32,000 nucleotides of DNA from Candidatus Saccharimonadota bacterium (GCA_001790095.1 MGBH01000001.1:930001-962000), one strand, 5' to 3'. Shown: positions 1,066-25,884, counted from the stretch's first letter. Notes: generated from the sequence alone by a model not told the origin. Program-made: numbers and translations.

Positions 1066-1090
1066 ATAGTAGTTTAAATAATGATTGGCA

Positions 1091-1118: not shown

Positions 1119-1122
1119 AAAT

Positions 1123-2139: not shown

Positions 2140-2157
2140 TTCGCACCCCATACTCCT

Positions 2158-3663: not shown

Positions 3664-4180
3664 ATATAGATGTTACTCAATATAAAAAATTATTTCAATA
3701 AATAAAAAAAATGGTAATAAAGCTAACAAAACACAAATTTATCATAGATTAAATACGGTCATGGCAATCTAAGCAAAAACGAAATTATTTTAGCAAATAA
3801 TATATTCAATTGCTTAAAATGATAATAATTTGAGCCTAAAATTATTAATTTAGGGCTTTTATATGCTTTAATCCAAAACTAAATTTACACATAGAGCCTT
3901 CATATGCTTTATGTATCGCAACACCAATACAGCCTTAATCACTAAATGAGGCAAAACTACTTGTATAAAATTAAACTCAATTAAATATACATGAAGTATT
4001 TCGGGTAATATCATAATGGTATATTTGTACTATGGGTTATATGATATACTTTGATATGTATGAGTATGTTAATTTTGTCTGCGGTTATTATTTTAAATAC
4101 GATTAAATTATATTACAGGTCTATATGAGTATTTCACGTAAGTATGAAATAACTATATCATAATATATACTAAATAGCTC

Positions 4181-4210
4181 TTGACAAACTTATTATTATT
4201 GTTTTATTCT
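4181..4210 (+). promoter_or_regulatory. Sigma70-type promoter candidate giving a leaderless or near-leaderless mRNA
   Basis: TTGACA lies at 4181-4186, then an 18-nt spacer, then TATTCT at 4205-4210. The ATG at 4217 is 7 nt after the -10 element. No SD motif is present. Confidence 0.35.
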
Positions 4211-4216
4211 TAATGT

Positions 4217-4762
4217 ATGACATCTTTATCTACACACAGGTATAATCTCGATAATCTTGAGGCTTTGTTTCGGGAATTCCTTATAGTTGAAAAAGTTGCA
4301 CCGATAACTTTAAAGAATTATCTTTCCGACCTCAGACACTTTTTCGGATGGTTTGTTTTTTTTCTTCATTCAAAAAAGCACAACATTTTGATTGATCAAA
4401 AAAACGAGAATGATCTTGTAAGCTACATAAATGTTGATATCGTTAACGCATATAAAACATATTTGGAAAGTAATGCTTTACCGGTAAAAACAATAAATAG
4501 AAGACTTTCTACTATCCGCAAATTCTGTACATTGTGCATAAAACAAGGCTGGATGAAGGAAAATCCGGCTAAGAAAGTGATAAATATCGTATCCAGTGTC
4601 CCCTCCTCTGAAAGCTCATCACAGGTTGTAATATCAAAAGATCCAATCAAAGAACTGTTAAACGAGTTTTGTAAGGATCTTACAAGCCAAAACTTAACTT
4701 CACATGAAATCAATCTCGTTCAAAATGATATTGATGAGTTTCTCACCATTATTAATTATTAA
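4217..4762 (+). CDS. Stand-alone phage-integrase N-terminal SAM-like (core-binding) domain protein with no catalytic domain
   Basis: The sequence LEALFREFLIVEKVAPITLKNYLSDLRHFFGWF...IVNAYKTYLESNALPVKTINRRLSTIRKFCTLCIKQGWMKENPAKKV fits the two-part SAM-like core-binding pattern of tyrosine recombinases. The remaining ~60 aa are Ser-rich or helical. No R..HxxR..Y catalytic region is present. Confidence 0.7.
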   Translation: MTSLSTHRYNLDNLEALFREFLIVEKVAPITLKNYLSDLRHFFGWFVFFLHSKKHNILIDQKNENDLVSYINVDIVNAYKTYLESNALPVKTINRRLSTIRKFCTLCIKQGWMKENPAKKVINIVSSVPSSESSSQVVISKDPIKELLNEFCKDLTSQNLTSHEINLVQNDIDEFLTIINY

Positions 4763-13900: not shown

Positions 13901-16900
13901 CGGTTTTGGAGGCAAGTATACCTCAGGAGGCACATATGCAACATGGGCAGGTATAGCTGGATTGAAAGAAAATGCAACAGATTCAAATACTTCAGGATAT
14001 TTATCGCTGCGGACAAGAGCAAACGGAGGAAACCTAACAGAACAAATGAGAATTGCAAGTAACGGCAATGTCGGCATCGGCACTACAAACCCTTCTCTTT
14101 TTAAACTTCAAGTAACAGGCAATATAGGCCCAACTACTACAAACAACTATGATCTTGGATTAACAGGTACCAGATGGAGAACAGGATATTTTGGAACTTC
14201 TCTTGACTCTCCTTCTTTAACCTATGCAGGTACTCTTGCATTGTCTGCAACAGGAGCAAATATAATAACGATGTCAACCAATGGATCTGAGAGATGGAGA
14301 GTTGCATCCAATGGAGTACTTCAGTCAAACGGTGCACAAACCATACAGACCTCAACCGGTAATCTTACTCTTGCAACAGCTGCAGGAAACGGACATATAC
14401 TTCTTTCTCCAAATGGGACGGGAAATGTGGGTATAGGAACGACGGCGCCAAGCAATCCCCTTGCAGTCATCTCTACCACTACTCCTCAGCTTCGTGTTGG
14501 TTATGACAACACAACCAATTACTTCACATCGGCAGTTGCTTCAAACGGATCAGTCACGTTTAACGCTAATGGAGCATCTGCCGCCTTTACTTTTTCAGAT
14601 CCTACTACAATATCCTCAACCGCAAATCCTGGGCTCACTGTAGGTAACGGTACGACGGGTTATCTGAAAATCGGCGGTTCAACCATATCTGATGCTGCAG
14701 GAAACCTCACATTAGATAGTGACAGTGGTACTATCAGCGCTTCAGATATTTTAAACATGGGTTGGAACGCCATAACTGGCGCATGGATAGGAGATGCTGA
14801 TTCTTATGGAGGCGGAGGATATAACAATATCGCAAATCATAACAATAATCTTATCCGAGCGGATGAAAAGGAAACCGTTACCATGAATAATGGTTGTGAT
14901 GCAGGATCAATCGCTAATATGTTTGATGGTGACCCTTCAACTATTTGTCAACTCACTGATGCTGCACCCAATGAGATCATTACTATAGATATGGGAAGCT
15001 ATGAGCATTATTGGACAGGGTTTGAGATCATGTGGACATATGATCGAGGTACTAACAACGTAACAATAGAAAAATACTGGGATCCTGACTCAACAGGTGG
15101 CTGTGATACGTGGGCAACCATTTATAGCGGAGCAGCTACAGGATACTCTACAAAAGTAAATGCGCCAGGCAATTATATATGTCAGTACCGCATCACAATA
15201 ACTGGTACGCCAGATGTTGCAAATGATGTTCGTATCGGAGACATACGAGGGTTCCAATATTATAACGACCAGAAAAATGATCTATATGCCGATATTACCG
15301 GCGCTACTTTTTACGGTGCAGTACAAGTTGGAACATCTACGACGAACAGAGACCTTGATGTATATGGCAATGTCGGCATAGTCTCCAGTAACACCACCGG
15401 TACCACAACCAGTAGTAGTCTTGGTCTTTCTGCCAACTCCCTCACAACCGGAACAGGTTTGTACGCTGCTTCATCTACCCTAACCTCAGGTAAATTAGTA
15501 GATCTTCAGGTGAGTGGGACTGCTGCAGCTGCATCTCAAACAGGACTTAATATTCTAACTGCCGGTGCCAATGGTACTGCGGGTATCACTTCTTATGGTG
15601 CACAAATATCAAATACCCATACAGGTACTACCTCTACTAATGTTGCCCTCTATCTCAATGCCTCAGGGGGTACTACAGCAAACTATGGTTTGATTGTAAA
15701 CGCTGGTAATGTGGGTATCGGAACGACAGCACCGGGAGCAAAACTTGACGTGTATAATCCATCAGGCACCACCCTTGCTTTAGCAGCCCAGGTCCAAAAC
15801 CTTAATAATGCAACTGGTCAAAATGGGCTTCTTGTCAATGTCGCCCGTGTGACTACAGATGATGCCACATACGGACTCAATGTCCAAGGAGGCGGCACAA
15901 GCCGACTTTACGTGAGAGGTGACGGATTTGTGGGTATTGGTACTACCGCCCAATCAGCCAACTGGCCTACTGATCTGCTTTTTATAAACGGTGAATTTAC
16001 TGCTGACAAATTCAATGATTCAGGAAGCAATAACCGCTATATTGATCCCAATGGCACCTCACGAATAAGCTATCTTGAGATGAGAAACGATCTCACCTTT
16101 ATTGACGCCGGCAATGCCGGCATCGGTAAAATCAACTCAAACGGAAGTTCTGTTATTATTGAAGGCCCTACTGGAGGCACAACAGACCTCTGTGTTGAGG
16201 ATCCTGATACTGGAACAGGCGGAGAATGTGACGGTAAAATCGACGCAGGTACCATCGACCCTCCCTACACTATAAATGGGAAAAAATATGCTACATACAT
16301 GGCCTCCATGACAGGGGTCAAAGAAGAAACTACCGATACCGTACATATTGAGTCAAAGATAGCAGAAGGCAGATATGCGTATGTTATTGACTTTAATAAT
16401 CAACCCATTGGATCTGACTTATGGCTTTTTAGTAAAACAACTCATCTTAAAGATAACCTAGATCATATGAGCGTTCTTCTCACTCCAACTGATGATACAC
16501 GGACGTGGTACAAAGTAGATAACACCGGAGATCATCTCACCCTTATTCTTTATTCTTCACGACCAACACAGATATCATATCGACTTACTGCTCCACGCTT
16601 CAATGCTGAAAATTTTGCCAATATTAGACCAGATAATGCTCCTGGCGGATTCTTGATAAACGATCCCGATATCATAGGTTCCCCCTATACTATCACTGAA
16701 GTTGGATCTTTAACCGATACGCATCATATAGCTTCAACTCAACCAACCAATACCTCGCTTGAAAGCTTAAGAGAGACAATATATCAAGTTGTGCACAACA
16801 CAAGCGGAGAAATGATAGAAGAGGTAGCAGTTTTCAACAAAATATTGATAGGTAAAATCCAGGCTGGTTTTGTGGAAGCACAAAATGCTGTTGTGACCAA

Positions 16901-18263
16901 CGTATTAAACGCTTCACATATCGTATCTGAAAATATTTCAAGCTATTCGCTACAAGTCACAAAACTTTTTGTAAACGAAAAGATAATCAGCCCGATCGTT
17001 GAGACTACAGATCTGTCAGCCTCAGGTACTGCAACTCTTGCGACTATAAAGACCGATACCATCAAACCGCAAGAACAAAATGTCACGATAGACCTCAATA
17101 CTTCTTCAGACAAAGGTACATTTGCCAAGCTCATCGTAAACGGTATCAACAATATAACTGTTGCATCTATTGATGAAGCAGGTAACGCTACGTTTGCAGG
17201 CTCCCTGACTAGCGTATCAGTGATCAGTGATCAGCTGTCAGTAAATGATGCAACCATATCAGGAAGTCTAACTGCCAATGAGGCCAGTCTTTCGGGTAAA
17301 CTCATTGCGAAAGAGATTGTATCTGATAATATCAGCGAGCTTACGGAAAGAACCGCCGCGGTTGAGGAGCAAAGCGGGAAAACCGCGGAGGTTAATGAGG
17401 TTTTGAGCAACAGTATTAATCAGGTTCAACAGGATCTTGCGGCGATAAAAAACCTACCTCTCCCTAACCCCGCCTATTATCAAAATTTGAGTGACTACCC
17501 TGTTGCAACTGTTTCTTCACTTCTTGCTCAATCAATTCAGACAGAAGATCTTACTGCGACTGGCAATGTAAACCTTTACAAAGCCTCAATCGCTGATTCC
17601 CTCACGGCCGGAACTATTTTTATGCAGGATAACTCTATCCTCTCTCTTTCATGGGAGCTCAAACTTTCAGCTCTTGCTCAGATCACTCTTTTTGACGGAA
17701 GTGTGGTCATCGCAAAAAATGGAAACATTACTACAAAAGGAGAACTCATCGCTGAGGGAGGAGTCCGGACGGATGAAATACAATCAATCGATGGAAAAAA
17801 AGACATCGCTATCAAACTAAATTCTCAATTGTCAAATTCCAATGAAAATTCATTGAAAAATGCAAAATTGAAAATTGAAAATTCCGAAGGCATGGATGTT
17901 GCCTCAATCGATGCCTCAGGCGCAGCCCGTCTCAACAGTTTAGCCTTCACTCATATATCTACCAACTCTGCTATCATTGCTGATTCAGGAGAACGCACTG
18001 TGGATGATGAAATCATCCCGGCTATTGAAACCAATGCTGAGGTGGCAGGTACCGGAGTCCTGCCCGTGGATGCACCGGAGATTATAATATACAATAATAG
18101 TGTTACGGCAGATTCTCTCATCTATCTGACTCCGATTGGTGAAACGCCAATCAATCAGCTCACGGTTGTGAAAAAGGAGATACATGGCCGTCCATATTTC
18201 TCAGTCTCATCCGGTACTACTCTCCATCCAGAGATCAAGTTTAATTGGTTGATTATAAACTAG
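4950..18263 (+). CDS. Giant (4437 aa) N-terminally membrane-anchored surface protein with tail-fibre-like repeats and lectin-like modules
   Basis: A single uninterrupted ORF. About 90 aa form a cytoplasmic head, followed by one TM helix (YIGFAIIFVLMAMLGAGLYNQFF, ~5226-5290). By my count there are about 25 copies of the motif GNVGIGTTxPxxKLDV/KLEV, often followed by G(D/N)IGPxxDxTRDLGSxSxRW. That signature is typical of phage tail-fibre-domain proteins. The protein also contains a G/T/A-rich beta-helix-like tract (~10260-11300), a CBM-like module, a discoidin-like module and a long C-terminal stalk. Confidence 0.9.
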   Translation: MIKINTDSIFQFVKALKRKSVPKNEIKRRLLSVDRFIKWAHQKSYLADDTFKQIQDEIAKLAIGDQRLEIGNQFPITNRQSLISNYSFGIQHYIGFAIIFVLMAMLGAGLYNQFFKKTPTPFAYSTTPLQGARVISFQGRLTDSLGNPIIAPIDITYNFYTAPSGGSPIAGSTRVCTANPDQDGVFANLIGDDSGPSCSTQLPANIFTENSEVFLGVTIGSEITEMSPRQQIANVGYAMNAETLQGLPPGTTASSIPFISAQGDLLIAASTPGIRSTYTTANFVISSAQATTIQSANGGDITFNATDGGTLRFNTFNGTLNERMTITPYGNVGISNTNPRASLDVIGDASLSGNLVFNGLTSQIRQLNGGNLSFVTSPGGDLGVSTKMTLLNNGNLGIGTTVPIYKLDVAGAASIAGNLMTGGQMQLGRFVADPTAVGSGSMYFNTTNNTIYYYNGTDWTQVGSGGGGGDNVWQRVLDGVVIPKIAADALNLGNSATASATVHLAGKTGDNSFINTGNFGIGTTGPAMKLDLGTGYSTNNSTFRTGTYELQPYALNNAFLAENAYYNGSTWTRRNTGYAEGFQFFNGQTLFFNNTSGTGSFSATYPFKTDSGNSGSVALGGNINTATGNYSGSSMVVLGTGNVGIGTTSPLEKLDVRGNATVSGYLTIGQSGALRSQYGPLNLAYKSGVNSWTTGMVLKDGSGNVGIGTTNPETKLHVYTSTAIGTYRDIYAKQIIDDADARLQIRSGDTGNYGSGLILSTADKSWAMMAQASSDNNNFYIGYKSSATDEDIMAGSSKHFTINTSGNVGIGTTNPLEKLDVRGNATVSGYLTIGQSGALRSQYGPLNLAYKSGVNSWTTGMVLQDSTGNVGIGTLNPTSFKLEVAGDIGPEADNTRDLGSASRYWNTIYVNNIVGSGALGYWQIDSNVLHPANQWASVVDLAIGGTSTSSAKFQVYGSGTNAGTASSSGQLTFNNNSGTHYVNSLWNRPLSFRTSPGGDTGLTDRLYIAANGNVGVGTTNPVAKLDIKGTFSSEVGYSSYTGDGVWNANARPSKIITPNLHELRFGYSDAGGGQYYPSIGFAANSTAVNDSLLILQSRVALGTPESYNRWQVSGGGTISWGAGSGAVDTNLYRVAANILGTDDTLYVGGNIGIGTTSPLEKLDVTGNASASGYVTVGQAGALRSQYGPLNLAYKSGLNTWTTGMVLKDGTGYVGIGTINPTYLLDVSGGSGIVGRFSGRVIGGDAVASNEFVTFGQLAGGSGQYWQRSGEALSPSNIWNSINVGATATASAYVHLAGTPNENSFVNTGNFGIGTISPVAKLDVVGNASISASLSYRSGAPNYVNVLGNQPLSFRTSPGGDAGLTDRFTLLANGNIGIGTTAPATKLDIDTSSNTTGLRLRGLAETVEISDIYVGSNGTFILDNTVGTGSSGYIDLRPEDNDYGMVLRESDGTGTGSFANFYVVDAATDYMNIIVNGAQSTTGLVVNANGNVGINNTSPLEKLDVTGNASASGYVTVGQAGALRSQYGPLNLAYKSGVNSWTTGMVLQDGTGNVGIGTTNPVAKLQVYPGYTTGTYNGINVSGGTTGGTYNAFSTDAFVNSGAGTVTGLSITSRIQNAATSSNAYGINATVYKGSGSTGTTTAIYGANLRVLNSSSDVITDTYGLKIADISNSGTMSNTYGVYVGDITAGTQTNTPFSFYASDANALNYFAGNVGIGSSAPTSFKLEVAGDIGPDADGTRDIGSPSRYYDTVYANNVVGLGALGYWSRGTGVLFPSTTTDGVAATGSATTVATFTASGTNDAARLGGSANYITVSPSGDLSFTGANADAINKVSGTLNINTTNNQAITTGTGQVTLAGNVDATNGLDVTTANLTVGGANFTVVPGTGNITTAGTVSIATGQSYTGAGTVTLSSAAASSLTINSGTTGAIAIGNDASAETIGLGTGAAAKTITIGNTTGATALNQRVGTGNYTLDGVAGSTYAFGASTTTGTMTIGGTAQTGLLTLGQSSGTNIVAIGSGTGATTVQIANGATNGKTVQIATGAVANTVSMGSTTGASATTLNAGSGNLTLNATSGNVALQTTTAGNITLTPGGTGDINITADADSFVNIAGLTDSTGTSLCLDGSSNLITCAGGGTGNTLQAAYDNGNTITTTTARNIAFTLGEVATPTSLTLENQDTAGTNAQRIFNSIASGTLTNGLLVEQTGAGTMTSGINITQTAGTISSGLTFTGITNDITTGANQHLALMPNGTGNVGIGTTSPAYNLEIEDVGDAAIYLEADSAGTGSEDNNAFIKLSQDGLLVQSIFGTVGNAGYDPENVAYTNTLANATLLGTLDNNGALQFGTNDAVRMTIAATGNVGIGTTSPTLFNLQVTGNIGPTTTNNYDLGLTGTRWRTGYFGTSLDSPSLTYAGTLALSATGANIITMSTNGSERWRVASNGVLQSNGAQTIQTSTGNLTLATAAGNGHILLSPNGTGNVGVGTTTPTSFKLEVAGNIGPDSDITRNIGAYNKRIANTYTGVIDESIFTQAGENAIKNSDRYNGGPGGWGTAANYSEAVVVGPQGTEVRAITNSTPLSTAGLLTDYLPVDPKKAYLLEYWIKQDDISAGTGTNYIGREEYTSGKANNDQGTGPYTWGGQKPPAANTWYHVYGIIPPHDSGAEVSHTATNSTITPGTEYKFWSSYTAYIRVKIYLNYNQPNPSQVWVTGVALRPLSSGGVNSFFATPGDASTSGNLAFVTGKTERLTITSNGNVGIGTTAPATGAKLDVYGGPIRLGANTSANNQLNTTAGSAPSGDLYWGSRTICDDSGNCGTAGVSPDSLDYTEFLDTMTLDANLILNQTTYTWTQNFTGTTTTGYTYNANSLTSGKALSIASSATAFTGTLAQVSLTGNNAANTGTIFKASSNGALNTGTVAMITNLGAGTSFRVNDETGDADTTPFLIDAGGNVGIGTTSPVSKLLLDDVTPTITGWQSLTIRSTDALAIDKGGTIGFGGKYTSGGTYATWAGIAGLKENATDSNTSGYLSLRTRANGGNLTEQMRIASNGNVGIGTTNPSLFKLQVTGNIGPTTTNNYDLGLTGTRWRTGYFGTSLDSPSLTYAGTLALSATGANIITMSTNGSERWRVASNGVLQSNGAQTIQTSTGNLTLATAAGNGHILLSPNGTGNVGIGTTAPSNPLAVISTTTPQLRVGYDNTTNYFTSAVASNGSVTFNANGASAAFTFSDPTTISSTANPGLTVGNGTTGYLKIGGSTISDAAGNLTLDSDSGTISASDILNMGWNAITGAWIGDADSYGGGGYNNIANHNNNLIRADEKETVTMNNGCDAGSIANMFDGDPSTICQLTDAAPNEIITIDMGSYEHYWTGFEIMWTYDRGTNNVTIEKYWDPDSTGGCDTWATIYSGAATGYSTKVNAPGNYICQYRITITGTPDVANDVRIGDIRGFQYYNDQKNDLYADITGATFYGAVQVGTSTTNRDLDVYGNVGIVSSNTTGTTTSSSLGLSANSLTTGTGLYAASSTLTSGKLVDLQVSGTAAAASQTGLNILTAGANGTAGITSYGAQISNTHTGTTSTNVALYLNASGGTTANYGLIVNAGNVGIGTTAPGAKLDVYNPSGTTLALAAQVQNLNNATGQNGLLVNVARVTTDDATYGLNVQGGGTSRLYVRGDGFVGIGTTAQSANWPTDLLFINGEFTADKFNDSGSNNRYIDPNGTSRISYLEMRNDLTFIDAGNAGIGKINSNGSSVIIEGPTGGTTDLCVEDPDTGTGGECDGKIDAGTIDPPYTINGKKYATYMASMTGVKEETTDTVHIESKIAEGRYAYVIDFNNQPIGSDLWLFSKTTHLKDNLDHMSVLLTPTDDTRTWYKVDNTGDHLTLILYSSRPTQISYRLTAPRFNAENFANIRPDNAPGGFLINDPDIIGSPYTITEVGSLTDTHHIASTQPTNTSLESLRETIYQVVHNTSGEMIEEVAVFNKILIGKIQAGFVEAQNAVVTNVLNASHIVSENISSYSLQVTKLFVNEKIISPIVETTDLSASGTATLATIKTDTIKPQEQNVTIDLNTSSDKGTFAKLIVNGINNITVASIDEAGNATFAGSLTSVSVISDQLSVNDATISGSLTANEASLSGKLIAKEIVSDNISELTERTAAVEEQSGKTAEVNEVLSNSINQVQQDLAAIKNLPLPNPAYYQNLSDYPVATVSSLLAQSIQTEDLTATGNVNLYKASIADSLTAGTIFMQDNSILSLSWELKLSALAQITLFDGSVVIAKNGNITTKGELIAEGGVRTDEIQSIDGKKDIAIKLNSQLSNSNENSLKNAKLKIENSEGMDVASIDASGAARLNSLAFTHISTNSAIIADSGERTVDDEIIPAIETNAEVAGTGVLPVDAPEIIIYNNSVTADSLIYLTPIGETPINQLTVVKKEIHGRPYFSVSSGTTLHPEIKFNWLIIN
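5161..5206 (+). repeat. Degenerate heptanucleotide array (CYAATCN-type units) inside the cytoplasmic head of the giant ORF
   Basis: Units read as gtaatca(5161-5167) ... ccaatca(5172-5178) ctaatcg(5179-5185) ccaatcg(5186-5192) ctaatct(5193-5199) ctaatta(5200-5206). The region is translated as GNQFPITNRQSLISNY. Confidence 0.7.
6896..7033 (+). repeat. Cassette copy 1 (138-bp perfect direct repeat with 7391-7528)
   Basis: Compared base by base, with an offset of 495 nt (165 codons). It encodes SPLEKLDVRGNATVSGYLTIGQSGALRSQYGPLNLAYKSGVNSWTTG. Flanks diverge immediately on both sides. Confidence 0.95.
7391..7528 (+). repeat. Cassette copy 2 (138-bp perfect direct repeat with 6896-7033)
   Basis: See copy 1. 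The two are identical over 138 bp. Confidence 0.95.
8415..8512 (+). repeat. Cassette copy 3 (98-bp perfect direct repeat with 9435-9532)
   Basis: The offset is 1020 nt (340 codons). It encodes SPLEKLDVTGNASASGYVTVGQAGALRSQYGP. This is a variant of the same cassette as copies 1 and 2. Confidence 0.95.
9435..9583 (+). repeat. Cassette copy 4, mosaic: 5' part identical to copy 3, 3' part identical to copy 2
   Basis: 9435-9532 is identical to 8415-8512. 9525-9583 is identical to 7476-7534 (59 bp), whereas copy 3 differs there (ccgcttaatcttgcatacaaatcagg). The crossover falls within the shared tatggtcc. Confidence 0.9.
12051..12376 (+). repeat. 326-bp perfect direct repeat, copy A (with 14106-14431)
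   Basis: The offset is 2055 nt (685 codons). Identity was checked line by line and is supported by the identical antisense ORFs 12082..12300 and 14137..14355 in the track. It encodes LQVTGNIGPTTTNNYDLGLTGTRWRTGYFGTSLDSPSLTYAGTLALSATGANIITMSTNGSERWRVASNGVLQSNGAQTIQTSTGNLTLATAAGNGHILLSPNGTGNVG. Confidence 0.97.
12531..13075 (+). other. CBM4_9-like / jelly-roll carbohydrate-binding module within the giant protein
   Basis: The stretch ENAIKNSDRYNGGPGGWGTAANYSEAVVVGPQGTEVRAI...DPKKAYLLEYWIKQDD...NTWYHVYGIIPP...YIRVKIYLNY...VWVTGVALRP breaks the fibre-repeat pattern. It has the W / sG..v / Y.l..W.k / W..v spacing of CBM-type sandwiches. Recognition is by eye. Confidence 0.4.
14106..14431 (+). repeat. 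326-bp perfect direct repeat, copy B
   Basis: See copy A. There is one mismatch at 12050/14105 and the next at 12377/14432. Flanking sequence is clearly diverged. Confidence 0.97.
14821..15265 (+). other. F5/8 type C (discoidin/CBM32)-like module within the giant protein
   Basis: The stretch AGSIANMFDGDPSTICQL...EIITIDMGSYEHYWTGFEIMWTYDRGTNNVTIEKYW...CDTWATIYSG...YRITITG fits the a.n.fDGd..T.W...i.iDLG....i..i.i.W pattern of discoidin domains. Confidence 0.5.
17832..17883 (+). repeat. Copy of the dispersed heptamer-based module, in-frame in the giant ORF (SNSNENSLKNAKLKIEN)
   Basis: tcaaattccaatga (17832-17845) is 14/14 identical to the reverse complement of 28628-28641. aaattcattgaaaaatgcaaaattgaaaattgaaaatt (17846-17883) matches the reverse complement of 28575-28612 at 36/38. 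Confidence 0.9.
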
Positions 18264-18283: not shown

Positions 18284-18395
18284 TAGTCTGGATTCCCACC
18301 TTCGTGGGAATGACAGTACAAAGCAGGAATGATAATCAGGAATGATAATACAGAACTAATAGAAGTCATCCCTGCGTAGGCAGGGATCCAGTCTA
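18284..18395. repeat. 112-bp twin-hairpin element with 31-bp imperfect terminal inverted repeats and an internal 13-bp tandem duplication
   Basis: Hairpin 1 is ATTCCCAC(18292-18299)-cttc-GTGGGAAT(18304-18311). Hairpin 2 is ATCCCTGC(18368-18375)-gtag-GCAGGGAT(18380-18387). Arms 18284-18314 and the reverse complement of 18365-18395 match at 23/31, with compensatory stem changes. caggaatgataat occurs twice in tandem (18324-18336, 18337-18349). The motif GGAATGA(C/T)A occurs three times. Confidence 0.85.
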
Positions 18396-18411: not shown

Positions 18412-18441
18412 TTGACAATTATATCGCAACTATATTACATT
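18412..18441 (+). promoter_or_regulatory. Sigma70-type promoter candidate for the second fibre gene, with a very short leader
   Basis: TTGACA lies at 18412-18417, then an 18-nt spacer, then TACATT at 18436-18441. The ATG at 18452 is 10 nt after the -10 element. No SD motif is present. Confidence 0.3.
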
Positions 18442-18451
18442 GATACTATAC

Positions 18452-21400
18452 ATGAAAAACTCCCTCAAACCTCATCAAGATTTCATGAGGTTCAAAATAT
18501 ATTCATATATGAGACATGTTGTTGTTTTACTTACCTTTTTTTTGCTTTTTGGATTTTTTACATATAAATTGATTGTCTTTGTCAAAGAAACTTATGCAGT
18601 AGTCGGAGATCTCGATATCGTCGGATCAGCCACTACCATTGAAGTACTATCAACTAAAACAGGATCACTCACCCTTGACACAACAGCATGTAAAAATCTA
18701 CAGGGCGTTCCTCGCCCCCTCTTAAAAGCCGCTAGCACCATCGGAGGAATTGACTGTGACACTTCTATAACCATAGCCGCAGCTGGAGCACTCACCGCAG
18801 GCACTTATAACGGTCAGACCATATCATCAGCTTCAAATTTGACAGGCAGTCTTACGGTTGCAAGCGGACTTACAGTATCAGCCGGCGCCATAACGCTTCC
18901 TGATAATTCCATTGCTTCTGCTGATGTGAACTTTAACTATGCAGCCGCTGCAAGCAAAGGAGGAGCGGCAACTGATTTATCTTGTACTAATTGTGTCGCG
19001 CTTACAACAGAAACCGCCGGTAATTATATCGCCACAATTACCGGTAACGGCCAAGTTGGGGTAGCGGGCTCAGGAGCAGAGAATGCTGCTGCTACACTCA
19101 GTATCGTTGCTGACTCAATTGGCGACACCCAGCTTGCCTATAACACAGGACAACACTTAACCACAACGAACGCTCCCACTTTTGCAGGAGGAACATTTAC
19201 CAGTACTGTTAATATGGCAGATACAAAGTATCTTTTTATGGGAGATGCAAGTGCTGGTAATTATTTTGGTTCAAATGGTACTTATCTAACCATGTATAAC
19301 GGTGGAGCGTCAGGTCTTTCTTTTTACGTCCAACAAAGCATACCTATTACATATATCTATTCGCCAAACATTTTTTTTGGCCTTGCAGCTGGAGGTACTT
19401 CGATACACACCCGAGGATCTACGGTCAATTTCGGTGAAACTGGCAATATAGGAGTAGAGAATTTTTATATGAGTTCAGCTGAAAGATTGAACTTTTTTTA
19501 TTCCAATGGAAGCACTGCCACTCAGGTCGGCGATATATCTGCATCTGATGCTTCTTGGTTTCGTATCAATCAAAATACGGTAAAGAATATCTTTACGCCC
19601 CAATATATTCGAGCTGATTCCGGATTGTTTGTCAAAAGTACCTCCTATGGTATAAGCTCTAATGGAATTCTGTTAAATGGTTCTTTATCTGGCACCTACT
19701 CAAACGCTCTTACTCTTAGTAGTGCTTCAAATGCATATTCAGGAGCTTCTCTTGCAGTAAGTGGTAATATAACGAGTTCTGCTGGAGATTTAACCATATC
19801 TGGTGGAAATATCTCAATTACTAATAATGCCGGTGGTGTTGATTTCAACGATGCTAATTCTTACTGGCTCCGCACCGCTACAAACCACGGCTTATACTGG
19901 GATACCACCAACAATACTTGGGAATGGCACTCTGCAGGTGTTGACAAATGGCGTGTTGACCTAAGTGGAAATACTGTTCAAGCTGGTGATCTCACTGTTT
20001 CTGGAACAGGTAATAGCTCTTTTGCTGGCAACGTCTACTTAACTGGCAATGTGGCTGTAGCTGGCATGTCTGCCATCCCTGCTACGTACAACAATACTAA
20101 TATTCTACCCAATCCCAGCTTTGAAGTGGCTACCAGCACTAACTACGACGGGTGGGCAGGTTCTGCCAGTGGCGGAACCGTCACTAGAACATCTAATGGG
20201 ATTTCCAATCACGATGGCGCCTATGGAATGGAACTGAATGTGACAACGGCAGGAACCGGCACTACCAATATTAATTCCACTCGACAACCGATTAGTCCAT
20301 CGACTACATATACGCTTTCAACCTGGGCTAAGGTTAATACTGCTTGTGGAGATGGCTTTCACCTTCGCGCCTACTGGATGAATGCAGCGGGAGCCTATAT
20401 TTCTGTCTCTGATCCTTACAGTAATTCTGGTGCCGTCACCACCTCATGGAATCTATATAAAGGAAATGTCACTTCTCCTGCCACTGCCTATAGTGTAAGA
20501 ATCTATATTTATAATAACCTGCCAACCAATGCCTGTACCCTCTATGTTGATCAGGTATCATTCAGACCAATGATTGACGCTGATGTACTCGTTAACGGCA
20601 ACGTGGGTATCGGCACAACAGTTCCAGCTGACAAACTTCATACTACAGGCTCTATAAGAGTAAATGGCGCAATAGCAAATGGACTTAAGTTCACATCCAA
20701 TGGAACCACAAGTTCAGATCATCTTCTTACCACACGAGGGGGCACAAGCTGGTTATATCTGAGAAATTGGGCAGATGACACATATAAAAACTTGGCAGTA
20801 GGTACGCTATACGGCGCAACCAGCATCACAGTGCCTGGTACATCAGATAGCTATATCATGGGAGACGTCGGTATTGGTACGACAGCTCCTGCGAATAAAC
20901 TCCATGTTAATGGTAATATAAGCCTAAGCACCAATATAAAGTTTACAGGAGGCGTTCCTACACTAGAAACTGCATTCGATGATTTTATATTTAAAATGGA
21001 TACGGATGCAACCAGTGGAAATGGTAGATTTGGCTTTTTTCAAGGAGCAACAGAAATGGTCGTGTTCAAAGGTAGCGGTAACGTCGGTATTGGTACAACA
21101 GCTCCTGCGAATAAACTCCATGTTAATGGTCAAATCAGATGGTATGGACGAAGCTACGTTGACTTTACGAATAATTACATGGATCAGGCGAGTCCTTACA
21201 TTGAAGTTAGAAATGGATTTACCGGTGGACTTTTCGGTATAACTGCATATGCTTCTTCTCTAAGGTTCAAAAAAAATATTACTCCGCTTGAGGTTGATTC
21301 GAATAAGATCTACGATCTCCGTCTTGTGTCATTTAACTGGAAGTCCCAAGAAGATGGTCAAATCAAGGCAATGGGCATGATTGCAGAGGAAGTAGACAAA

Positions 21401-21832
21401 ATACTTCCGCAAGTAGTAGCCTACGATAAAGAAGGTCCCCATCATATTGATTATGGTCTTTTGTCAGTGCTTACCATCAAAGAACTTAAAAAGCTGAATC
21501 ATGATATTGGTTTGACGAGCACGGGAGATATTCATATGATTGAAGATTCAAATGGCGGATATGATTTGAAAACCAAAGATGATACATTTTTTACCCGAAT
21601 AGGCGCTTTTGCTGAATTAGTTGCGGCGAAAATGCAGGCGGGTGTTATAGAGACCAAAAAGTTGCTCATCAACGGAGTTGATCTTATGAAAAAAATAACT
21701 GATCTTGAAAACCATAATGATGCCCTGCAGCAACAAGTGGACAAACTTAAACAGGAAAACACTGCTTTGAAAAATCAACAGACAAATCTAGAAAAACGTT
21801 TGGAAGTATTAGAGCAAAAGATAAGAAACTAA
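18452..21832 (+). CDS. N-terminally anchored tail-fibre-like protein with CBM-like module and Peptidase_S74 intramolecular-chaperone domain
   Basis: The track ORF starts at TTG 18440. I prefer ATG 18452 (MKNSLKPHQDF...). The protein has a TM anchor (VVVLLTFFLLFGFFTYKLIVFV) and three GNVGIGTTxPAxKLH motifs. It also has a CBM-like module, the S74 signature ASSLRFKKNITPL...MGMIAEEV...IDYGLLSVLTIKELKKL, and a C-terminal coiled coil (DLENHNDALQQQVDKLKQENTALKNQQTNLEKRLEVLEQK). Confidence 0.88.
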   Translation: MKNSLKPHQDFMRFKIYSYMRHVVVLLTFFLLFGFFTYKLIVFVKETYAVVGDLDIVGSATTIEVLSTKTGSLTLDTTACKNLQGVPRPLLKAASTIGGIDCDTSITIAAAGALTAGTYNGQTISSASNLTGSLTVASGLTVSAGAITLPDNSIASADVNFNYAAAASKGGAATDLSCTNCVALTTETAGNYIATITGNGQVGVAGSGAENAAATLSIVADSIGDTQLAYNTGQHLTTTNAPTFAGGTFTSTVNMADTKYLFMGDASAGNYFGSNGTYLTMYNGGASGLSFYVQQSIPITYIYSPNIFFGLAAGGTSIHTRGSTVNFGETGNIGVENFYMSSAERLNFFYSNGSTATQVGDISASDASWFRINQNTVKNIFTPQYIRADSGLFVKSTSYGISSNGILLNGSLSGTYSNALTLSSASNAYSGASLAVSGNITSSAGDLTISGGNISITNNAGGVDFNDANSYWLRTATNHGLYWDTTNNTWEWHSAGVDKWRVDLSGNTVQAGDLTVSGTGNSSFAGNVYLTGNVAVAGMSAIPATYNNTNILPNPSFEVATSTNYDGWAGSASGGTVTRTSNGISNHDGAYGMELNVTTAGTGTTNINSTRQPISPSTTYTLSTWAKVNTACGDGFHLRAYWMNAAGAYISVSDPYSNSGAVTTSWNLYKGNVTSPATAYSVRIYIYNNLPTNACTLYVDQVSFRPMIDADVLVNGNVGIGTTVPADKLHTTGSIRVNGAIANGLKFTSNGTTSSDHLLTTRGGTSWLYLRNWADDTYKNLAVGTLYGATSITVPGTSDSYIMGDVGIGTTAPANKLHVNGNISLSTNIKFTGGVPTLETAFDDFIFKMDTDATSGNGRFGFFQGATEMVVFKGSGNVGIGTTAPANKLHVNGQIRWYGRSYVDFTNNYMDQASPYIEVRNGFTGGLFGITAYASSLRFKKNITPLEVDSNKIYDLRLVSFNWKSQEDGQIKAMGMIAEEVDKILPQVVAYDKEGPHHIDYGLLSVLTIKELKKLNHDIGLTSTGDIHMIEDSNGGYDLKTKDDTFFTRIGAFAELVAAKMQAGVIETKKLLINGVDLMKKITDLENHNDALQQQVDKLKQENTALKNQQTNLEKRLEVLEQKIRN
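20098..20570 (+). other. CBM4_9-like carbohydrate-binding module
   Basis: The stretch NILPNPSFEVATSTNYDGWAGSASGGTVTRTSN..HDGAYGMELNV...STTYTLSTWAKV...TSWNLYKGNVTSPATAYSVRIYIYNN...LYVDQVSFRP matches the classic N.sFE....gW ... G..sl.v ... Y.ls.W.k ... dd.s. pattern. Confidence 0.55.
21251..21510 (+). other. Peptidase_S74 (endosialidase/tail-spike C-terminal intramolecular chaperone) domain
   Basis: A-S-S-L-R-F-K-K-N-I aligns with the family motif S-D-R-R-L-K-E-N-I. The candidate nucleophile Ser is at 21254-21256, and the Lys five residues later is at 21269-21271. The downstream pattern GMIAEEVDKILPQVV...IDYGLLSVLTIKELKKL matches the rest of the domain. Confidence 0.7.
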
Positions 21833-21896
21833 TTTACATTTATCTTCCGCCGCCACCATCATGCATGTACAAAATCATAAATATCACCATAAATGT

Positions 21897-22733
21897 ATGA
21901 ATGAACTAAAAATAAAAATTCTTATTGTTGTCACCCTCTTTTTTCTTATATTGCTAGGTGTAGACGTATTTTTTGGAGACTCATTCCGATCTTTGTTTTC
22001 AAAAAAAACAAAAGTATCGCCTGATGTTTTAATGGTAACTAAACCTATCCATTCACTCATTGGAAAAGTAGTTAAGATCGAAAAAGATAAGCTAACTATT
22101 TCGCATGAGTCAACTAATACAGTCAATGCTCCACTTACCAATTTTACAGTCAAAGTCCCAAAAAACTTCCTTGTGAGCGTCACGTTTCATCCTATCCCCT
22201 ATCATTTCTCACAAACAGATCCTATCCAACAGATTCCTTTTATCAAATATCAAGACCTTGAGCTCGGGGAGATCGTTGTAATTCAAACTAATGATGACCT
22301 ACGTATTACAACGGGCAAAATCCCTCTTGCAAGTCAGATAAGCATCGTAAGTTCTTCCAATTTCATCCTTGGTGAGATCCTTTCTATCACAGATCATGTT
22401 CTTTCTGTTAAGGGCCGTGCACAACTCATGCCGACTGATATATCCACCACAGTAGAACAAGAGTTTACCAGAGAAAAGCTATATTCAGTGCAGGTTGACC
22501 AAAACACTGAAATATCATATGTTCCATCAGAACCATCCTCGACACTTTTATCAAGCGAACCACCAGCTCCCCCTCCTCCAAAACAAGCTTCATTTGCCGA
22601 TCTTAAACCCGGGATGACTCTTTATATATATACAAATAAGAACGTTTTGAAGAGTCCATCTGTTCTGGCCCTTCGTATTGAACCTTTTGGACTACCCGCT
22701 ACTACCTCTGTAGAAGACACTGAAAACAAATAA
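21897..22733 (+). CDS. Membrane-anchored hypothetical protein with Pro-rich segment
   Basis: The track ORF starts at 21861. ATG 21897 (MNELKIKILIVVTLFFLILLGVDVFF) gives a more typical N-terminal anchor. There are two similar beta-barrel-like segments (LIGKVVKIEKDKLTISHES; ILGEILSITDHVLSVKGRAQL) and an EPPAPPPPK linker. No family was recognised. Confidence 0.55.
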   Translation: MNELKIKILIVVTLFFLILLGVDVFFGDSFRSLFSKKTKVSPDVLMVTKPIHSLIGKVVKIEKDKLTISHESTNTVNAPLTNFTVKVPKNFLVSVTFHPIPYHFSQTDPIQQIPFIKYQDLELGEIVVIQTNDDLRITTGKIPLASQISIVSSSNFILGEILSITDHVLSVKGRAQLMPTDISTTVEQEFTREKLYSVQVDQNTEISYVPSEPSSTLLSSEPPAPPPPKQASFADLKPGMTLYIYTNKNVLKSPSVLALRIEPFGLPATTSVEDTENK

Positions 22734-22754: not shown

Positions 22755-23438
22755 ATGGACAGATCAAATAAAAAAGAAGCCGCTGTTACTCTTCTGGAGA
22801 TCATGATGATTGTGGCCATAATTACTCTTCTTGTTGTAGCGGTTATATCTCTTCTTGATCCTGTTGAGCAAATTGCACGTTCAAGAGATACTAAGCGCAA
22901 ACAAGACCTCAACGTGTTGCAAAAAAAATTTGAGGAATGGTATAACGATAAAGGATGTTACCCACGACTTAGTGAGGTCGCCTATACATCAAGTATCTCA
23001 GGTCTGGCGGGCAAAATCTGTTCAACCAAAGATGACTCTCCCAATCTCACCTATTTTACAGACAACATCATCTGTGATCCACAATCTCCTTTTTATGAAT
23101 ATCTCTATGTGACAACAGGAGCCTCAACCTGTCCAACTGCGTATGTCGTTTATTCGCGTCTTGCCGCAACATACGTGCGTGAAAATGACGTATATGACTG
23201 CGGGCCCCATGGCTGCGGAATTGCGCCTTCCTACGGATACGACTATCTTGTATCAAGTCCAAACGCCGTAATCTCTGTATCTGATGATTTTTACTGTTTT
23301 GATCGAAGTAGCCGCTGTACCAGTTGCGGCACTTATGAATCATGCGTAAATGCAATGTATGATCAAGTATGCATAACTATCTACGCTTCAAAATACCTAT
23401 GCTGTCAAGCAGAGCCAGGAGCTGGATACTGCCCTTGA
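22755..23438 (+). CDS. Type IV pilin/pseudopilin-like protein with a Cys-rich globular domain
   Basis: The N-terminus MDRSNKKEAA/VTLLEIMMIVAIITLLVVAVISLL has a short charged leader. Glu is at +5 of the predicted mature end and is followed by a hydrophobic helix, a prepilin-type pattern. Ala-Val replaces the canonical Gly-Phe. The C-terminal ~160 aa contain 14 Cys. Confidence 0.55.
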   Translation: MDRSNKKEAAVTLLEIMMIVAIITLLVVAVISLLDPVEQIARSRDTKRKQDLNVLQKKFEEWYNDKGCYPRLSEVAYTSSISGLAGKICSTKDDSPNLTYFTDNIICDPQSPFYEYLYVTTGASTCPTAYVVYSRLAATYVRENDVYDCGPHGCGIAPSYGYDYLVSSPNAVISVSDDFYCFDRSSRCTSCGTYESCVNAMYDQVCITIYASKYLCCQAEPGAGYCP

Positions 23439-25549: not shown

Positions 25550-25884
25550 ATGGAAAAGATCGTGTCATTTTCTGATTTGATTGCATGGAAAAAAGCACAT
25601 CTTTTCCATCAGAAGAAAAATTTTGTCTCATTGATCAGTTACGAAGAGCAGCAGTAACTATTACAAGCAATATTGCAGAAGGCTTCAATAGAAAAACACC
25701 ACTAGATAAGATTCATTTTTACTATACTGCCATATCTTCTGTTAGCGAAATACAAAGCCAGTTATATATAGCCCATGACCTACAATATATCACTGTAAAG
25801 ACATTTAGTAATCTTATGAGCGAGTCTGTAGAGATTCATAAACTAATCAATGGTCTTATTAAATATATGAAAAACCATACTTAA
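25550..25884 (+). pseudogene. Four-helix-bundle protein (23S rRNA intervening-sequence protein family) disrupted by a deletion and frameshift
   Basis: Frame 2 from ATG 25550 gives MEKIVSFSDLIAWKKAH, the family N-terminus, then runs out of frame to a stop at 25655-25657. Frame 1 (track ORF 25585..25884) carries the rest: FPSEEKFCLIDQLRRAAVTITSNIAEGFNRK...SEIQSQLYIAHDLQYI. WKKAH ends at 25600 and FPSEE starts at 25603, so the ~13 residues that normally separate them are missing. A truncated 99-aa product from ATG 25585 remains possible. Confidence 0.5.

Follow-up and report, generated by a model that had tools for sequence, protein, structure and literature searches.

We consider it probable that the 1126-aa protein described here is a trimeric surface fibre, most plausibly an adhesin, and that its C-terminal 192 aa act as an extended S74 intramolecular chaperone. 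A preliminary description of this DNA had recognised an S74 domain on a cell-anchored fibre protein, and our analysis confirms that the domain is genuine and that its Ser-Lys dyad is intact. The protein is a further example of a kind that is already known.

Gene and genomic setting

The gene lies in a window of 32,000 nucleotides, the whole stretch of DNA that was analysed (Table 1), and has an alternative in-frame start, a TTG, at 18440. Its product is identical to the 1126-aa fibre encoded on GCA_001790045.1 MGBF01000001.1 and to that encoded on a contig of an independent ENA assembly (L002). From N to C terminus it consists of a shaft (aa 50-549), a CBM_4_9 module (aa 550-687), three 'GIGTT' repeats (aa ~705-934) and the chaperone (last 192 aa). 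The promoter-like site ends 10 nt upstream of the ATG, which would leave a very short leader, and this match to the consensus suggests that the fibre gene can be transcribed apart from the giant ORF before it.

Table 1. Features of the fibre gene and its neighbours, in window coordinates
Feature	Position	Strand	Details or basis
Giant non-S74 fibre paralogue, 4437 aa	4950..18263	+	Shared repeats
Sigma-70-like promoter consensus match	18412..18441	+	TTGACA, 18 nt spacer, TACATT; 10/12 matches
S74-type fibre gene	18452..21832	+	ATG 18452, stop 21830-21832, 1126 aa
N-terminal hydrophobic segment, aa 23-44	18518..18583	+	Hydropathy
Possible signal-peptidase site T47-Y48-A49/V50	18590-18601	+	Conserved small-x-Ala
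N-proximal fibre shaft, aa 50-549	18599..20098	+	Motif-level matches
CBM_4_9 carbohydrate-binding module, aa 550-687	20099..20512	+	PF02018
Three distal fibre repeats, G[ND]VGIGTTxPAxKLH motif	20564..21253	+	Beta-helix homology
Peptidase_S74 core, aa 935-989	21254..21418	+	Pfam PF13884
Segment B, aa 1005-1074	21464..21673	+	Recurrence in relatives
Terminal leucine-zipper coiled coil, aa 1071-1126	21662..21829	+	Heptad analysis
290-aa membrane protein	21861..22733	+	29 nt downstream of fibre gene

The host locus is part of the chromosome of a tiny groundwater bacterium of Candidatus Roizmanbacteria (CPR/Patescibacteria), not of a phage. A 1.2-Mb contig of GCA_001790045.1 contains the window, whose Rho protein shares 84% identity with a homologue from Roizmanbacteria. 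Genes flanking the locus code for GDH, a pyridine nucleotide-disulphide oxidoreductase (TrxR-like), an M23 peptidase and Rho. Five other contigs show synteny with the locus (L084, L085 and L088; partly L086 and L087). A homologue of the 290-aa membrane protein lies immediately downstream of the S74-zipper fibre gene in 5/5 loci examined, and L084, which lacks the S74-zipper fibre, also lacks this homologue. The membrane protein may be a functional partner of the S74 fibre.

Fibres with S74 domains are familiar from phages, and PHROG tail-fibre families 9942 and 18345 match the distal repeats; an integrase SAM-like fragment (4217-4762) and an Avd-like gene (25585-25884) also lie nearby. It is nonetheless extremely unlikely that the gene is part of a prophage, a tailocin or another phage-derived particle rather than of the cell surface. 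The window holds no capsid, portal, terminase, tail tube, sheath or baseplate genes, the integrase-like gene has an N-terminal SAM-like domain only and keeps its position in L084, synteny of the locus among housekeeping genes extends to several genomes, and the protein carries an export or anchor segment at its N terminus, of a kind not known from virion fibres. Searches of the neighbours in the window against PHROG and Pfam returned no phage structural genes, and this result, together with the synteny between housekeeping genes on several Roizmanbacteria-like contigs, speaks against a phage or prophage tail fibre or tailspike.

The S74 core and its catalytic dyad

The Peptidase_S74 assignment held when it was checked against the profile: PF13884 matches the core over model positions 1-57 of 58 (E 1.7e-11; 44.6 bits, gathering cut-off 22 bits). 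The catalytic motif reads A934-S935-S936-L937-R938-F939-K940-K941-N942-I943, with the nucleophile Ser935 encoded at 21254-21256 and the general base Lys940 at 21269-21271, the codons named in the preliminary description. Both residues are invariant in 15/15 aligned relatives. By analogy with characterised domains, the predicted scissile bond is Ala934/Ser935, and cleavage there would free a fragment of 192 aa, close to the ~190 aa first estimated.

Structural modelling is consistent with this assignment. The S74 core is well defined in an AF2 model of aa 900-1126 (pLDDT 80-92). The best PDB matches of the model are chains of 3GW6, an endosialidase chaperone, and are weak (Foldseek: E ~0.06, TM ~0.2) because the monomer model leaves the long helix splayed. 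A search of BFVD gave 179 fold matches at E<=1e-3, with S74/ICA tail-fibre, neck-appendage and endosialidase-chaperone proteins dominating the named top matches, and the modelled fold thus appears similar to solved or predicted ICA domains. At the sequence level, the T5-like L-shaped tail fibre chaperone 8hqz_d matched with E 0.009. Cleavage in T5 is gated by the upstream 'sensor' residues Asp1239 and Arg1250, for which Arg920 and Glu918 are candidate counterparts only, mapped with low confidence.

An extended C-terminal chaperone

The last 192 aa are a single functional unit made up of the S74 core, a short helix, a beta-hairpin, an amphipathic helix and an 8-heptad zipper. Inserted as a cassette between the core and the terminal zipper is a stretch that we call segment B, which comprises the end of the first helix, the beta-hairpin (~aa 1028-1040) and the amphipathic helix (GAFAELVAAKMQAGVIETKKL); the hairpin and the adjacent linker are modelled at low confidence (pLDDT 40-59). 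AF2 predicts a single helix over aa 1046-1125, with pLDDT 80-95 in the terminal helix. The heptad coiled coil expected at the C terminus is indeed there: 8 uninterrupted heptads have Leu at every d position (LLLLLLLL) and G/I/N/V/N/Q/L/I at the a positions, and in the Pfam scan this region gave weak matches to many coiled-coil families. Canonical chaperones have a trimeric coiled coil at their end, from which folding is nucleated (PMC4690869, PMC8326128). In MyRF, a C-terminal triple coiled coil is the main driver of trimerisation (PMC8326128), and by analogy the terminal zipper is predicted to be the trimerisation nucleus of the chaperone.

The preliminary description had placed the S74 domain inside the protein, followed by ~105 residues ending in a coiled coil. 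More sequence ending in a coiled coil does lie behind the Pfam match, but it amounts to 137 aa, and nothing follows the coiled coil at aa 1126, which puts the S74 module at the C terminus, where phages also have it. The 'internal' reading is mostly an artefact, because the PF13884 model stops after the first ~58 aa of the chaperone. The chaperone of T5 pb1, residues 1263-1396, has a central trimeric coiled coil at its end (PMC4690869), and the piece cleaved off Bd3182 is 141 aa long (PMC10769870); the module studied here is ~40-60 aa longer than these chaperones (133-141 aa). Such an extension is not unique. Across 131 S74 relatives, the distance from the Ser to the C terminus clusters at 88-130 aa (81 proteins), with a second cluster at ~180-202 aa that has the layout found here, namely core, segment B and helix, and at least 10 other metagenomic proteins have the same extended S74 architecture. 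Segment B follows S74 in P0034, P0035, P0037, P0038, P0040, P0042, P0048, P0053, P0069 and P0077, is missing from P0027, which has the closest S74 core, and recurs inside the giant ORF.

Segment B and the zipper also occur together behind a non-S74 domain that has no Ser-Lys motif (P0066, P0079 and others), so the cassette can work without proteolysis. This observation would suit a model in which the S74 module and zipper are never cleaved and stay in place as a foldon-like C-terminal trimerisation or stalk domain, as would the unusual length of the zipper (8 heptads) and the many relatives that have more fibre or large domains after S74, where downstream release is less obviously useful. However, Ser935, Lys940 and the S-x-x-R-x-K-x-N-I motif are strictly conserved, which would be unexpected were catalysis dispensable, and all S74 domains tested so far self-cleave, namely those of T5, K1F, MyRF and Bd3182 (PMC4690869, PMC8326128, PMC10769870). 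We therefore regard permanent retention as unlikely and favour a chaperone that is cut off.

N-terminus, shaft and distal fibre

The hydrophobic segment that had been noted at the N terminus is present, with a mean Kyte-Doolittle hydropathy of 2.27 over 19 aa. It is preceded by a basic 22-aa N terminus and directly followed by the possible signal-peptidase site. It had been taken for a membrane anchor, and judged from its sequence it could equally act as a signal anchor or belong to a cleavable signal peptide as its h-region. The same N-terminal layout, together with a conserved 'KA[VI]AGxLN[IV]' motif, is found in the relatives P0027, P0034, P0038, P0042, P0048 and P0053.

A scan of aa 1-549 against Pfam matched no family, and the shaft motifs NFNYAAxxSKGGAATDLxCxxC and DSIGDTQLAYNTGQHLTTTNAPTFAG are common to other fibre proteins (motif-level matches, P0002-P0020). 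The CBM_4_9 module was detected when its segment was scanned alone (E 4.9e-8; 33.9 bits against a cut-off of 25.9) and was not listed in the full-length scan. Copies of the distal repeat motif lie at aa 716-730, 804-819 and 876-891, with DNA repeat copies at 20593-20646, 20857-20910 and 21073-21126. The region aa 722-896 is homologous to the beta-helix of Bdellovibrio Bd2133 (PDB 8OND, E 2.8e-5), in an alignment that takes in the GNVGIGxTAPxxKLxV loops. Going by this homology and the PHROG matches, a trimeric beta-helical fibre would directly precede the S74 domain.

The giant neighbour and its fused relatives

As had been proposed, the fibre and its giant neighbour share a GNVGIGTTxPxxKLxV repeat, with 11 strict copies in the giant and 2 strict and 1 loose in the fibre. 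The giant begins with a cytoplasmic SAM-like domain of ~92 aa and a TM at aa 93-115, and it carries a segment-B-like helix (nt 16758-16967) and a C-terminal domain of ~480 aa (nt ~16764-18260). A Pfam scan found no S74 core in it, in line with the preliminary description, and a profile of the fibre's module matches it only at the post-S74 hairpin and helix (E 1.7e-9 over the segment-B-like stretch).

At the syntenic locus of GCA_037444855.1, P0144 is the positional orthologue of the giant (N terminus E 2e-92, C terminus E 2e-82) and joins a giant-like N terminus, S74 with segment B and a giant-type C-terminal domain in one gene; no second fibre gene is found at that locus. S74 is truly internal in P0144, as in P0049, P0172, P0068, P0041 and P0081, with 400-630 aa after the Ser. 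This fused gene with its internal S74 points to module shuffling. The two-gene arrangement of a giant-type and an S74-zipper fibre recurs in L085 and L088, giving co-occurrence in at least 3 loci. The fusion and the co-occurrence show that the fibre and the giant share a module history.

The preliminary description had also raised the question of whether the fibre, or its S74 module, folds the S74-less giant in trans, or whether the two build a mixed fibre. Several of the observations above would fit: the giant keeps a post-S74 hairpin and helix yet has no S74 core, P0144 unites the parts of both proteins where a second fibre gene is missing, the gene pair recurs, and fusion and fission patterns of this sort are used to infer functional linkage. 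Nevertheless, we know of no S74 chaperone that acts in trans. The tentacles and catalytic site of solved chaperones work on the upstream beta-helix of the chain to which they belong (PMC4690869), and 8 non-S74 MATs of Bdellovibrio fold with the help of independent tip domains of their own (PMC10769870). Fibre and giant have different sequences immediately upstream of the module, and their shared repeats reach only ~60-70% DNA identity, which makes registration of a heterotrimer unlikely. The fibre also has its own promoter-like site and its own putative export signal, and tip or module swapping would equally yield the fusion and fission pattern. We found no direct support for help in trans or a mixed fibre, swapping accounts for the P0144 fusion and the co-occurrence at least as well, and we consider either arrangement highly unlikely.

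Comparison with phage and eukaryotic chaperones and a proposed mechanism

The phage ICA/CIMCD domains used for comparison (MEROPS S74 / PF13884) were those of the T5 pb1 L-shaped tail fibre (4UW8), the K1F endosialidase (3GW6) and the GA-1 neck appendage (3GUD). Our protein resembles them in the Ser-x4-Lys dyad where the module joins a trimeric beta-helical fibre, in the order of alpha/beta core, beta-hairpin and C-terminal helix of a trimeric coiled coil, and in the C-terminal position of a released module, although trimer and release are predictions here. Unlike them, it is encoded by a cellular rather than a viral gene, and its module is longer (192 aa, as opposed to 133 aa in T5), with an extra helix between core and hairpin and an 8-heptad zipper in place of the ~24-residue helix of T5. 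Since it has a putative export signal, which sets it apart from these phage proteins, folding would be extracytoplasmic. To our knowledge, every phage chaperone characterised so far folds in the cytoplasm. There is precedent for an exported S74 fibre in the Bdellovibrio MATs, which carry signal peptides.

MyRF, a membrane protein of eukaryotes whose ICA domain is truly internal (PMC8326128), is likewise a membrane-associated cellular protein in which S74/ICA and a C-terminal triple coiled coil serve trimerisation and self-cleavage. There, the ICA has a DNA-binding domain before it and a C-terminal TM after it, and cleavage frees the N-terminal part, whereas our fibre has an N-terminal hydrophobic segment and ends with the zipper. 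Classification of the fibre as an internal ICA protein of the MyRF type was ruled out, given that no further domain lies behind the zipper.

We infer a mechanism modelled on T5 pb1, K1F endosialidase, MyRF and Bd3182. The N-terminal hydrophobic segment would take the chain through Sec and would then either stay as a membrane anchor or be removed at T47-Y48-A49/V50. The three C-terminal helices would zip into a trimeric coiled coil, which would register the three chains and template the folding of the upstream triple beta-helix. Once the beta-helix had folded correctly, Lys940-activated Ser935 would cut the Ala934-Ser935 bond, releasing the 192-aa chaperone as a trimer and exposing a mature tip that ends at Ala934. 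Because folding and cleavage need no ATP or partner, such a process could work outside the cell.

Relation to Bdellovibrio fibres and possible function

The closest known system is that of the MAT (mosaic adhesive trimer) fibres of Bdellovibrio bacteriovorus, surface adhesins whose termini are of S74 or non-S74 type (Caulton et al. 2024, PMC10769870), among which self-cleavage of Bd3182 at S782 has been demonstrated experimentally (PMC10769870). Because these fibres are known, a cell-surface fibre ending in S74 already has precedent. MATs are chromosomally encoded, exported trimeric fibres of ~1000 aa from a bacterium that attaches to other bacteria, and our protein, with predicted export and a predicted trimer, is similar. 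The beta-helical repeats have the same capping-loop motif, GNVGIGxTAPxxKLxV (3 copies in the fibre, at least 11 in the giant), the division into an S74 subfamily (Bd3182, with a self-cleaving SDxxxK-type motif) and an other-tip subfamily (Bd2133) mirrors that between fibre and giant, and mosaic 'tip swapping' is seen in both systems.

The two systems also differ. The host is a CPR bacterium (Roizmanbacteria) rather than a Gram-negative predator. MATs have a signal peptide followed by a conserved beta-rich N-terminal domain of ~130 aa; our fibre has a 22-aa basic N terminus and a hydrophobic segment, and the giant begins with a cytoplasmic SAM-like domain and a TM. In addition, CBM_4_9 sits mid-shaft, the chaperone is longer than that of Bd3182 (192 versus 141 aa), with an additional hairpin-helix cassette and a longer zipper, and the fibre, known here from sequence alone, adjoins a 4437-aa giant partner.

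An episymbiotic lifestyle is described for cultivated Patescibacteria (PMC12206443). Together with this lifestyle, the export segment and the CBM_4_9 module suggest that the fibre would be displayed on the cell surface, where it may bind glycans or a host and so mediate adhesion to another cell.

Results

A C-terminal chaperone in the S74-type fiber protein

Our results support the proposal, made in the preliminary description of this locus, that the 1126-aa fiber protein contains a genuine S74 domain. A Pfam scan matches PF13884 (Peptidase_S74) to aa 935–989 (E 1.7e-11; 44.6 bits, gathering score 22), and the Ser and Lys codons of the dyad lie exactly where they had been placed (Table). In an alignment of the protein with 14 relatives, these two residues are among only eight invariant columns. 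An identical protein is encoded on the 1.217-Mb contig MGBF01000001.1 of GCA_001790045.1 and on an independently assembled ENA contig, and thus the ORF is not an assembly artifact; translation could alternatively begin at an in-frame TTG (18440). A six-frame profile scan of the window ruled out any further S74 core, scans for Rfam families and tRNAs came back empty, and a contig scan of genomes with the fiber protein as query returned no relatives.

The same description held that the S74 domain is internal and is followed by a heptad coiled coil. The coiled coil is clear, as the last 56 aa form eight unbroken heptads with Leu at each d position, but the module is C-terminal, since the protein ends with this coiled coil, the element that also ends the chaperones of T5 pb1 and MyRF. 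PF13884 is a 58-position model that spans only the start of the chaperone, about its first third, so that a Pfam match ending ~100–140 aa before the C terminus is normal. The T5 pb1 chaperone (residues 1263–1396, 133 aa) consists, in order, of an alpha/beta hairpin, a long beta-hairpin "tentacle" and a C-terminal helix (1371–1394) that forms a central triple coiled coil and is the proposed starting point of folding (PMC4690869). In MyRF, trimerization is driven mainly by a C-terminal triple coiled coil, and cleavage requires the trimer (PMC8326128). The chaperone of Bd3182, for which self-cleavage has been demonstrated experimentally, extends from S782 to residue 922 (141 aa; PMC10769870). The chaperone studied here is ~40–60 aa longer than those of T5 pb1 and Bd3182. 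Judged from sequence, the supposed internal domain plus coiled coil is ordinary chaperone anatomy in a modestly extended, recurrent variant.

An AF2 model of aa 900–1126 (mean pLDDT 67, core 80–92) contains an alpha/beta core, a helix at aa ~1001–1014, a low-confidence hairpin at aa ~1028–1040 and a single long helix over aa 1046–1125. Its best PDB fold matches are chains of 3GW6, an endosialidase chaperone, although these are weak (E ~0.06). BFVD returned 179 fold matches at E ≤ 1e-3, and the named top matches are mostly S74 or intramolecular chaperone (ICA) tail fibers, neck appendages or endosialidase chaperones. Counterparts of the T5-type upstream cleavage-gating residues could not be mapped in the protein. 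By homology, the protein would be trimeric, self-cleaving and located at the cell surface.

Table. Coordinates of features at the fiber locus (nt of the window unless aa is stated) and of the fused relative P0144
Feature	Position	Strand	Size	Remarks
Three consecutive genes and a Big_1 Ig-like protein gene	103–3231 and 3235–3663	+ and −	320, 338, 357 aa	
SAM-like gene	4217–4762	+	181 aa	
Giant ORF	4950–18263	+	4437 aa	TM aa 93–115
Giant, direct repeat	11991–12290 / 14046–14345	+	300 nt	93% identical
Giant, match to S74 module profile	16758–16967			E 1.7e-9
Spacer hairpin 1	18290–18311			ATTCCCAC-cttc-GTGGGAAT
Spacer hairpin 2	18368–18387			ATCCCTGC-gtag-GCAGGGAT
S74 fiber ORF	ATG 18452 to stop 21830–21832	+	1126 aa	
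Last two GIGTT repeats	20865–20922, 21081–21138		58 nt	93% identical
S74 motif A934-S-S-L-R-F-K-K-N-I	Ser935 21254–21256, Lys940 21269–21271	+		
S74 fiber, chaperone	S935 to residue 1126		192 aa	Protein terminates with coiled coil
Gene of ~280-aa type	21861–22733	+	290 aa	Single TM, directly downstream of S74 fiber
Pilin-like gene	22755–23438	+	227 aa	Downstream of S74 fiber
Four-helix gene	25585–25884	+	99 aa	
P0144, N-terminal part	aa 1–601			Giant aa 1–718, E 2e-92
P0144, repeats + S74 + segment B	aa 879–1276			S74 fiber aa 695–1073, E 7e-32
P0144, C-terminal part	aa 1233–1745			Giant aa 3939–4437, E 2e-82

Similarity to Bdellovibrio surface fibers

The N terminus of the S74 fiber consists of a basic 22-aa head and a 22-aa hydrophobic stretch (aa 23–44), right behind which lies a conserved small-x-Ala site (T47-Y48-A49/V50; VKA/VAGQLNI in relatives). 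The hydrophobic segment may either stay as a signal anchor or be removed as a signal peptide. No family matched aa 50–549, and many "antibody heavy chain" PDB matches to aa 420–510 were taken as compositional or beta-strand noise. Residues 550–687 form a carbohydrate-binding module of type CBM_4_9 (E 4.9e-8; 33.9 bits, cut-off 25.9), and three repeats with a G[ND]VGIGTTxPAxKLH loop follow at aa ~705–934. The last two GIGTT repeats are nearly identical in DNA sequence (Table). In Bd2133, a Bdellovibrio fiber of solved structure, the beta-helix (8OND; E 2.8e-5) matches the three repeats, as do PHROG tail-fiber families.

The closest known system is that of the Bdellovibrio mosaic adhesive trimer (MAT) fibers, which have the capping-loop motif in common with our protein. 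These are 21 chromosomal trimeric surface fibers, 13 terminated by S74 and 8 by other tips, that share a GIGTT-type capping-loop motif (PMC10769870). Because S74-capped MAT fibers are already known in Bdellovibrio, the idea of a cellular fiber with S74 loses most of its novelty, and our protein is best filed as a CPR (Patescibacteria) member of this S74-capped, MAT-like kind.

A recurrent hairpin-helix-zipper cassette

An exhaustive HMMER search with aa 900–1126 yielded 15,600 proteins (E ≤ 1e-3). Among the best 150 of these, 131 match the core, and the distance from Ser to the C terminus is 88–130 aa in 81 (a short class), 131–220 aa in 23 and more than 220 aa, with S74 truly internal, in 27. 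The middle range contains a tight class of ~180–202 aa, including P0034, P0035, P0037, P0038, P0040, P0042, P0048, P0053, P0069 and P0077, that has the same layout as our protein: core, segment B (aa 1005–1074) and coiled coil. Segment B is a hairpin plus the helix AFAExVxxKIxAGxIETKKL (consensus AFAExVxxKIxAGxIETKxL). P0038 and P0034 hold the syntenic position of our fiber in the related loci L085 and L088. The nearest S74 core, at 68% identity, belongs to P0027, which has the same N-terminal signal/TM layout; its first helix runs directly into the coiled coil without segment B, indicating that segment B is an inserted cassette.

Segment B and the coiled coil also occur behind an unrelated non-S74 domain (P0066, P0070, P0079, P0083, P0086, P0125, P0128, P0141, P0168 and P0174) with the motif ...GRVPVKV..NG.I..GDPLT.S..PG.AMKAT..GKALE...SWYDPDVYLTSTGDL. 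Scans of two members (P0066 and P0079) gave no Pfam match for this domain, and P0066 gave no PDB sequence match; the domain may act as another kind of cap or chaperone. The occurrence of segment B and the coiled coil behind it suggests that together they are a portable trimerization unit. Some of the close cores (P0028, P0031; P0026, P0029, P0030) have S74 in tandem, and others of this set have a GNVGIGT fiber repeat after S74, so that the fiber apparently extends past the "chaperone". Separately, P0003, a 1263-aa S74 fiber protein, opens with the C-terminal fragment of a split intein (precomputed PF14890), which suggests that this fiber is put together by protein trans-splicing.

The giant neighbor and a fused relative

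The giant upstream ORF had been described as sharing the repeats but not S74, and indeed it has at least 11 GIGTT repeats and no S74 core was found in it. The profile of the S74 module matches the giant only at the hairpin and helix of segment B (Table). The last ~480 aa of the giant share homology (E 1e-88 to 1e-19) with the regions downstream of S74 and segment B in P0049, P0144, P0172, P0161, P0081, P0068 and P0041, all of which, like P0113, have a Pfam-confirmed internal S74 followed by 400–630 aa. The AF2 model of the C-terminal ~500 aa is poor (pLDDT 44.5), with a confident beta-sandwich only in the last ~80 aa, and a PDB sequence search with the C-terminal domain gave no match. At the other end, the ~92-aa N-terminal domain (its first ~55 aa, 4950–5115), which lies cytoplasmically with respect to the TM, weakly resembles the SAM-like domain of the upstream gene (pairwise E 4e-4).

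P0144 (L084:10001-15238, 1745 aa) is the sole fiber gene at the syntenic locus L084 (GCA_037444855.1, Roizmanbacteria-like). It joins pieces of the giant and of the S74 fiber, and thus both share module history with the fused form. L085 and L088 resemble the window in having an S74-less giant-type gene plus a separate S74-zipper gene. The pattern is one of fusion or fission, yet exactly the same would result from tip or module swapping. The repeats that the giant and the S74 fiber have in common are only 60–70% identical in DNA; there has thus been no recent exchange, and a recent conversion event between the two genes was rejected. Within the giant, a 300-nt direct repeat points to a recent internal duplication or conversion. 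The giant-type gene of L085 is apparently broken (L085:3720-4598): a 1231-aa ORF stops where giant aa 3899 aligns, and small ORFs of 134 and 106 aa match giant aa 3975–4070 and 4163–4271. A pseudogene, a frameshift and an assembly error are all conceivable explanations.

The preliminary description had also asked whether the S74 fiber helps the giant to fold in trans, or whether the two form a mixed fiber. We regard both as improbable: known ICA domains work on the chain to which they belong, and MATs that lack S74 fold without it.

A conserved chromosomal locus

The Rho encoded in the window shares 84% identity with the Rho of a Candidatus Roizmanbacteria MAG, and those of its best matches that are informatively titled all come from Roizmanbacteria, Microgenomates or Patescibacteria. 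The neighboring genes are cellular, encoding glutamate dehydrogenase, a pyridine nucleotide-disulfide oxidoreductase (thioredoxin-reductase-like), a LysM-M23 peptidase, a sugar transferase, Rho and a TPR membrane protein. PHROG scans of the window gave no virion genes; they picked up nothing beyond the SAM-like N-terminal fragment of an integrase and a four-helix protein of Avd-like type. The gene order recurs in L084, L085 and L088 and in part in L086 and L087. By gene content and order, the locus is chromosomal and not a prophage.

The 290-aa protein had no family match; its homologs (279–284 aa) lie directly 3' of the S74-zipper fiber gene in 5/5 loci, and the gene is absent from L084, which likewise has no S74-zipper fiber. 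The cluster is further accompanied by a type-IV-pilin-like protein and by a TPR membrane protein of ~700 aa. It is reasonable to predict that these companion proteins are partners of the fiber, for example in anchoring or assembly.

The pilin-like protein, which is unfused in the window and has the N terminus KKEAAVTLLEIMMIVAIITLLVV, corresponds in L084, L085, L086 and L088 to the C-terminal half of a ~360–420-aa protein with a PDDEXK_3- or IVP-like N-terminal half; the fusion gene lies upstream of the S74 fiber gene in L085, L086 and L088, not in L084. The four-helix protein matches 23S_rRNA_IVP/bAvd and the PHROG "Avd protein of DGR" (E 4e-11), and the window contains no reverse transcriptase. 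Four Avd/IVP-type genes surround the fiber locus in L084, and the pilin-like gene of L085 and L088 carries a fused IVP-like domain. The SAM-like protein is a phage-integrase N-terminal domain alone, without the catalytic domain, and its gene is also kept upstream of the L084 fiber gene. The 188 nt that separate the giant from the S74 fiber contain two GC-rich hairpins, which may mark transcript ends or be repeat elements; the second has a terminator score on the minus strand only. At the start of the window, the 320-, 338- and 357-aa proteins had no family matches, and the latter two have signal-peptide-like N termini; the order of their genes and the Big_1 gene is preserved upstream of the L084 fiber locus at 37–50% identity.

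Discussion

The locus corrects a frequent misreading of Pfam S74 matches that stop short of the C terminus. Many environmental proteins do have a genuinely internal or tandem S74, and new biology should be sought there rather than in the S74 fiber described here.

A more far-reaching reading, which we consider unlikely as a whole, is that the locus records the fission of an ancestral fiber with a truly internal S74. The ancestor would have been of the P0144 type, ordered as anchor, shaft, S74, hairpin-helix and ~500-aa distal domain. The giant would have retained the distal domain and lost the protease core, whereas the smaller fiber would have retained S74 and acquired a leucine zipper. Segment B would then be both the recombination joint and a portable trimerization cassette behind S74 or a non-proteolytic cap. 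In the same scenario, the S74-zipper fiber, the giant and the ~280-aa membrane protein would cooperate in a single CPR host-attachment apparatus whose chaperone folds extracellularly.

CPR bacteria are assumed to spend their lives attached to other microbes, and, type IV pili aside, their attachment proteins are to our knowledge largely unknown. Of greater interest than the S74 fiber itself are the P0144-type fusion genes, in which S74 is truly internal, the putative portable cassette of hairpin, helix and zipper, and the conserved cluster of giant, S74-fiber and 280-aa genes. Our work places phage-tail-fiber-like fibers of MAT type, one S74-capped and one a 4437-aa giant, in a conserved but architecturally variable locus of a Roizmanbacteria genome. 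The two are concrete candidates for host recognition, and the predicted Ser935-dependent self-cleavage offers a simple biochemical handle.
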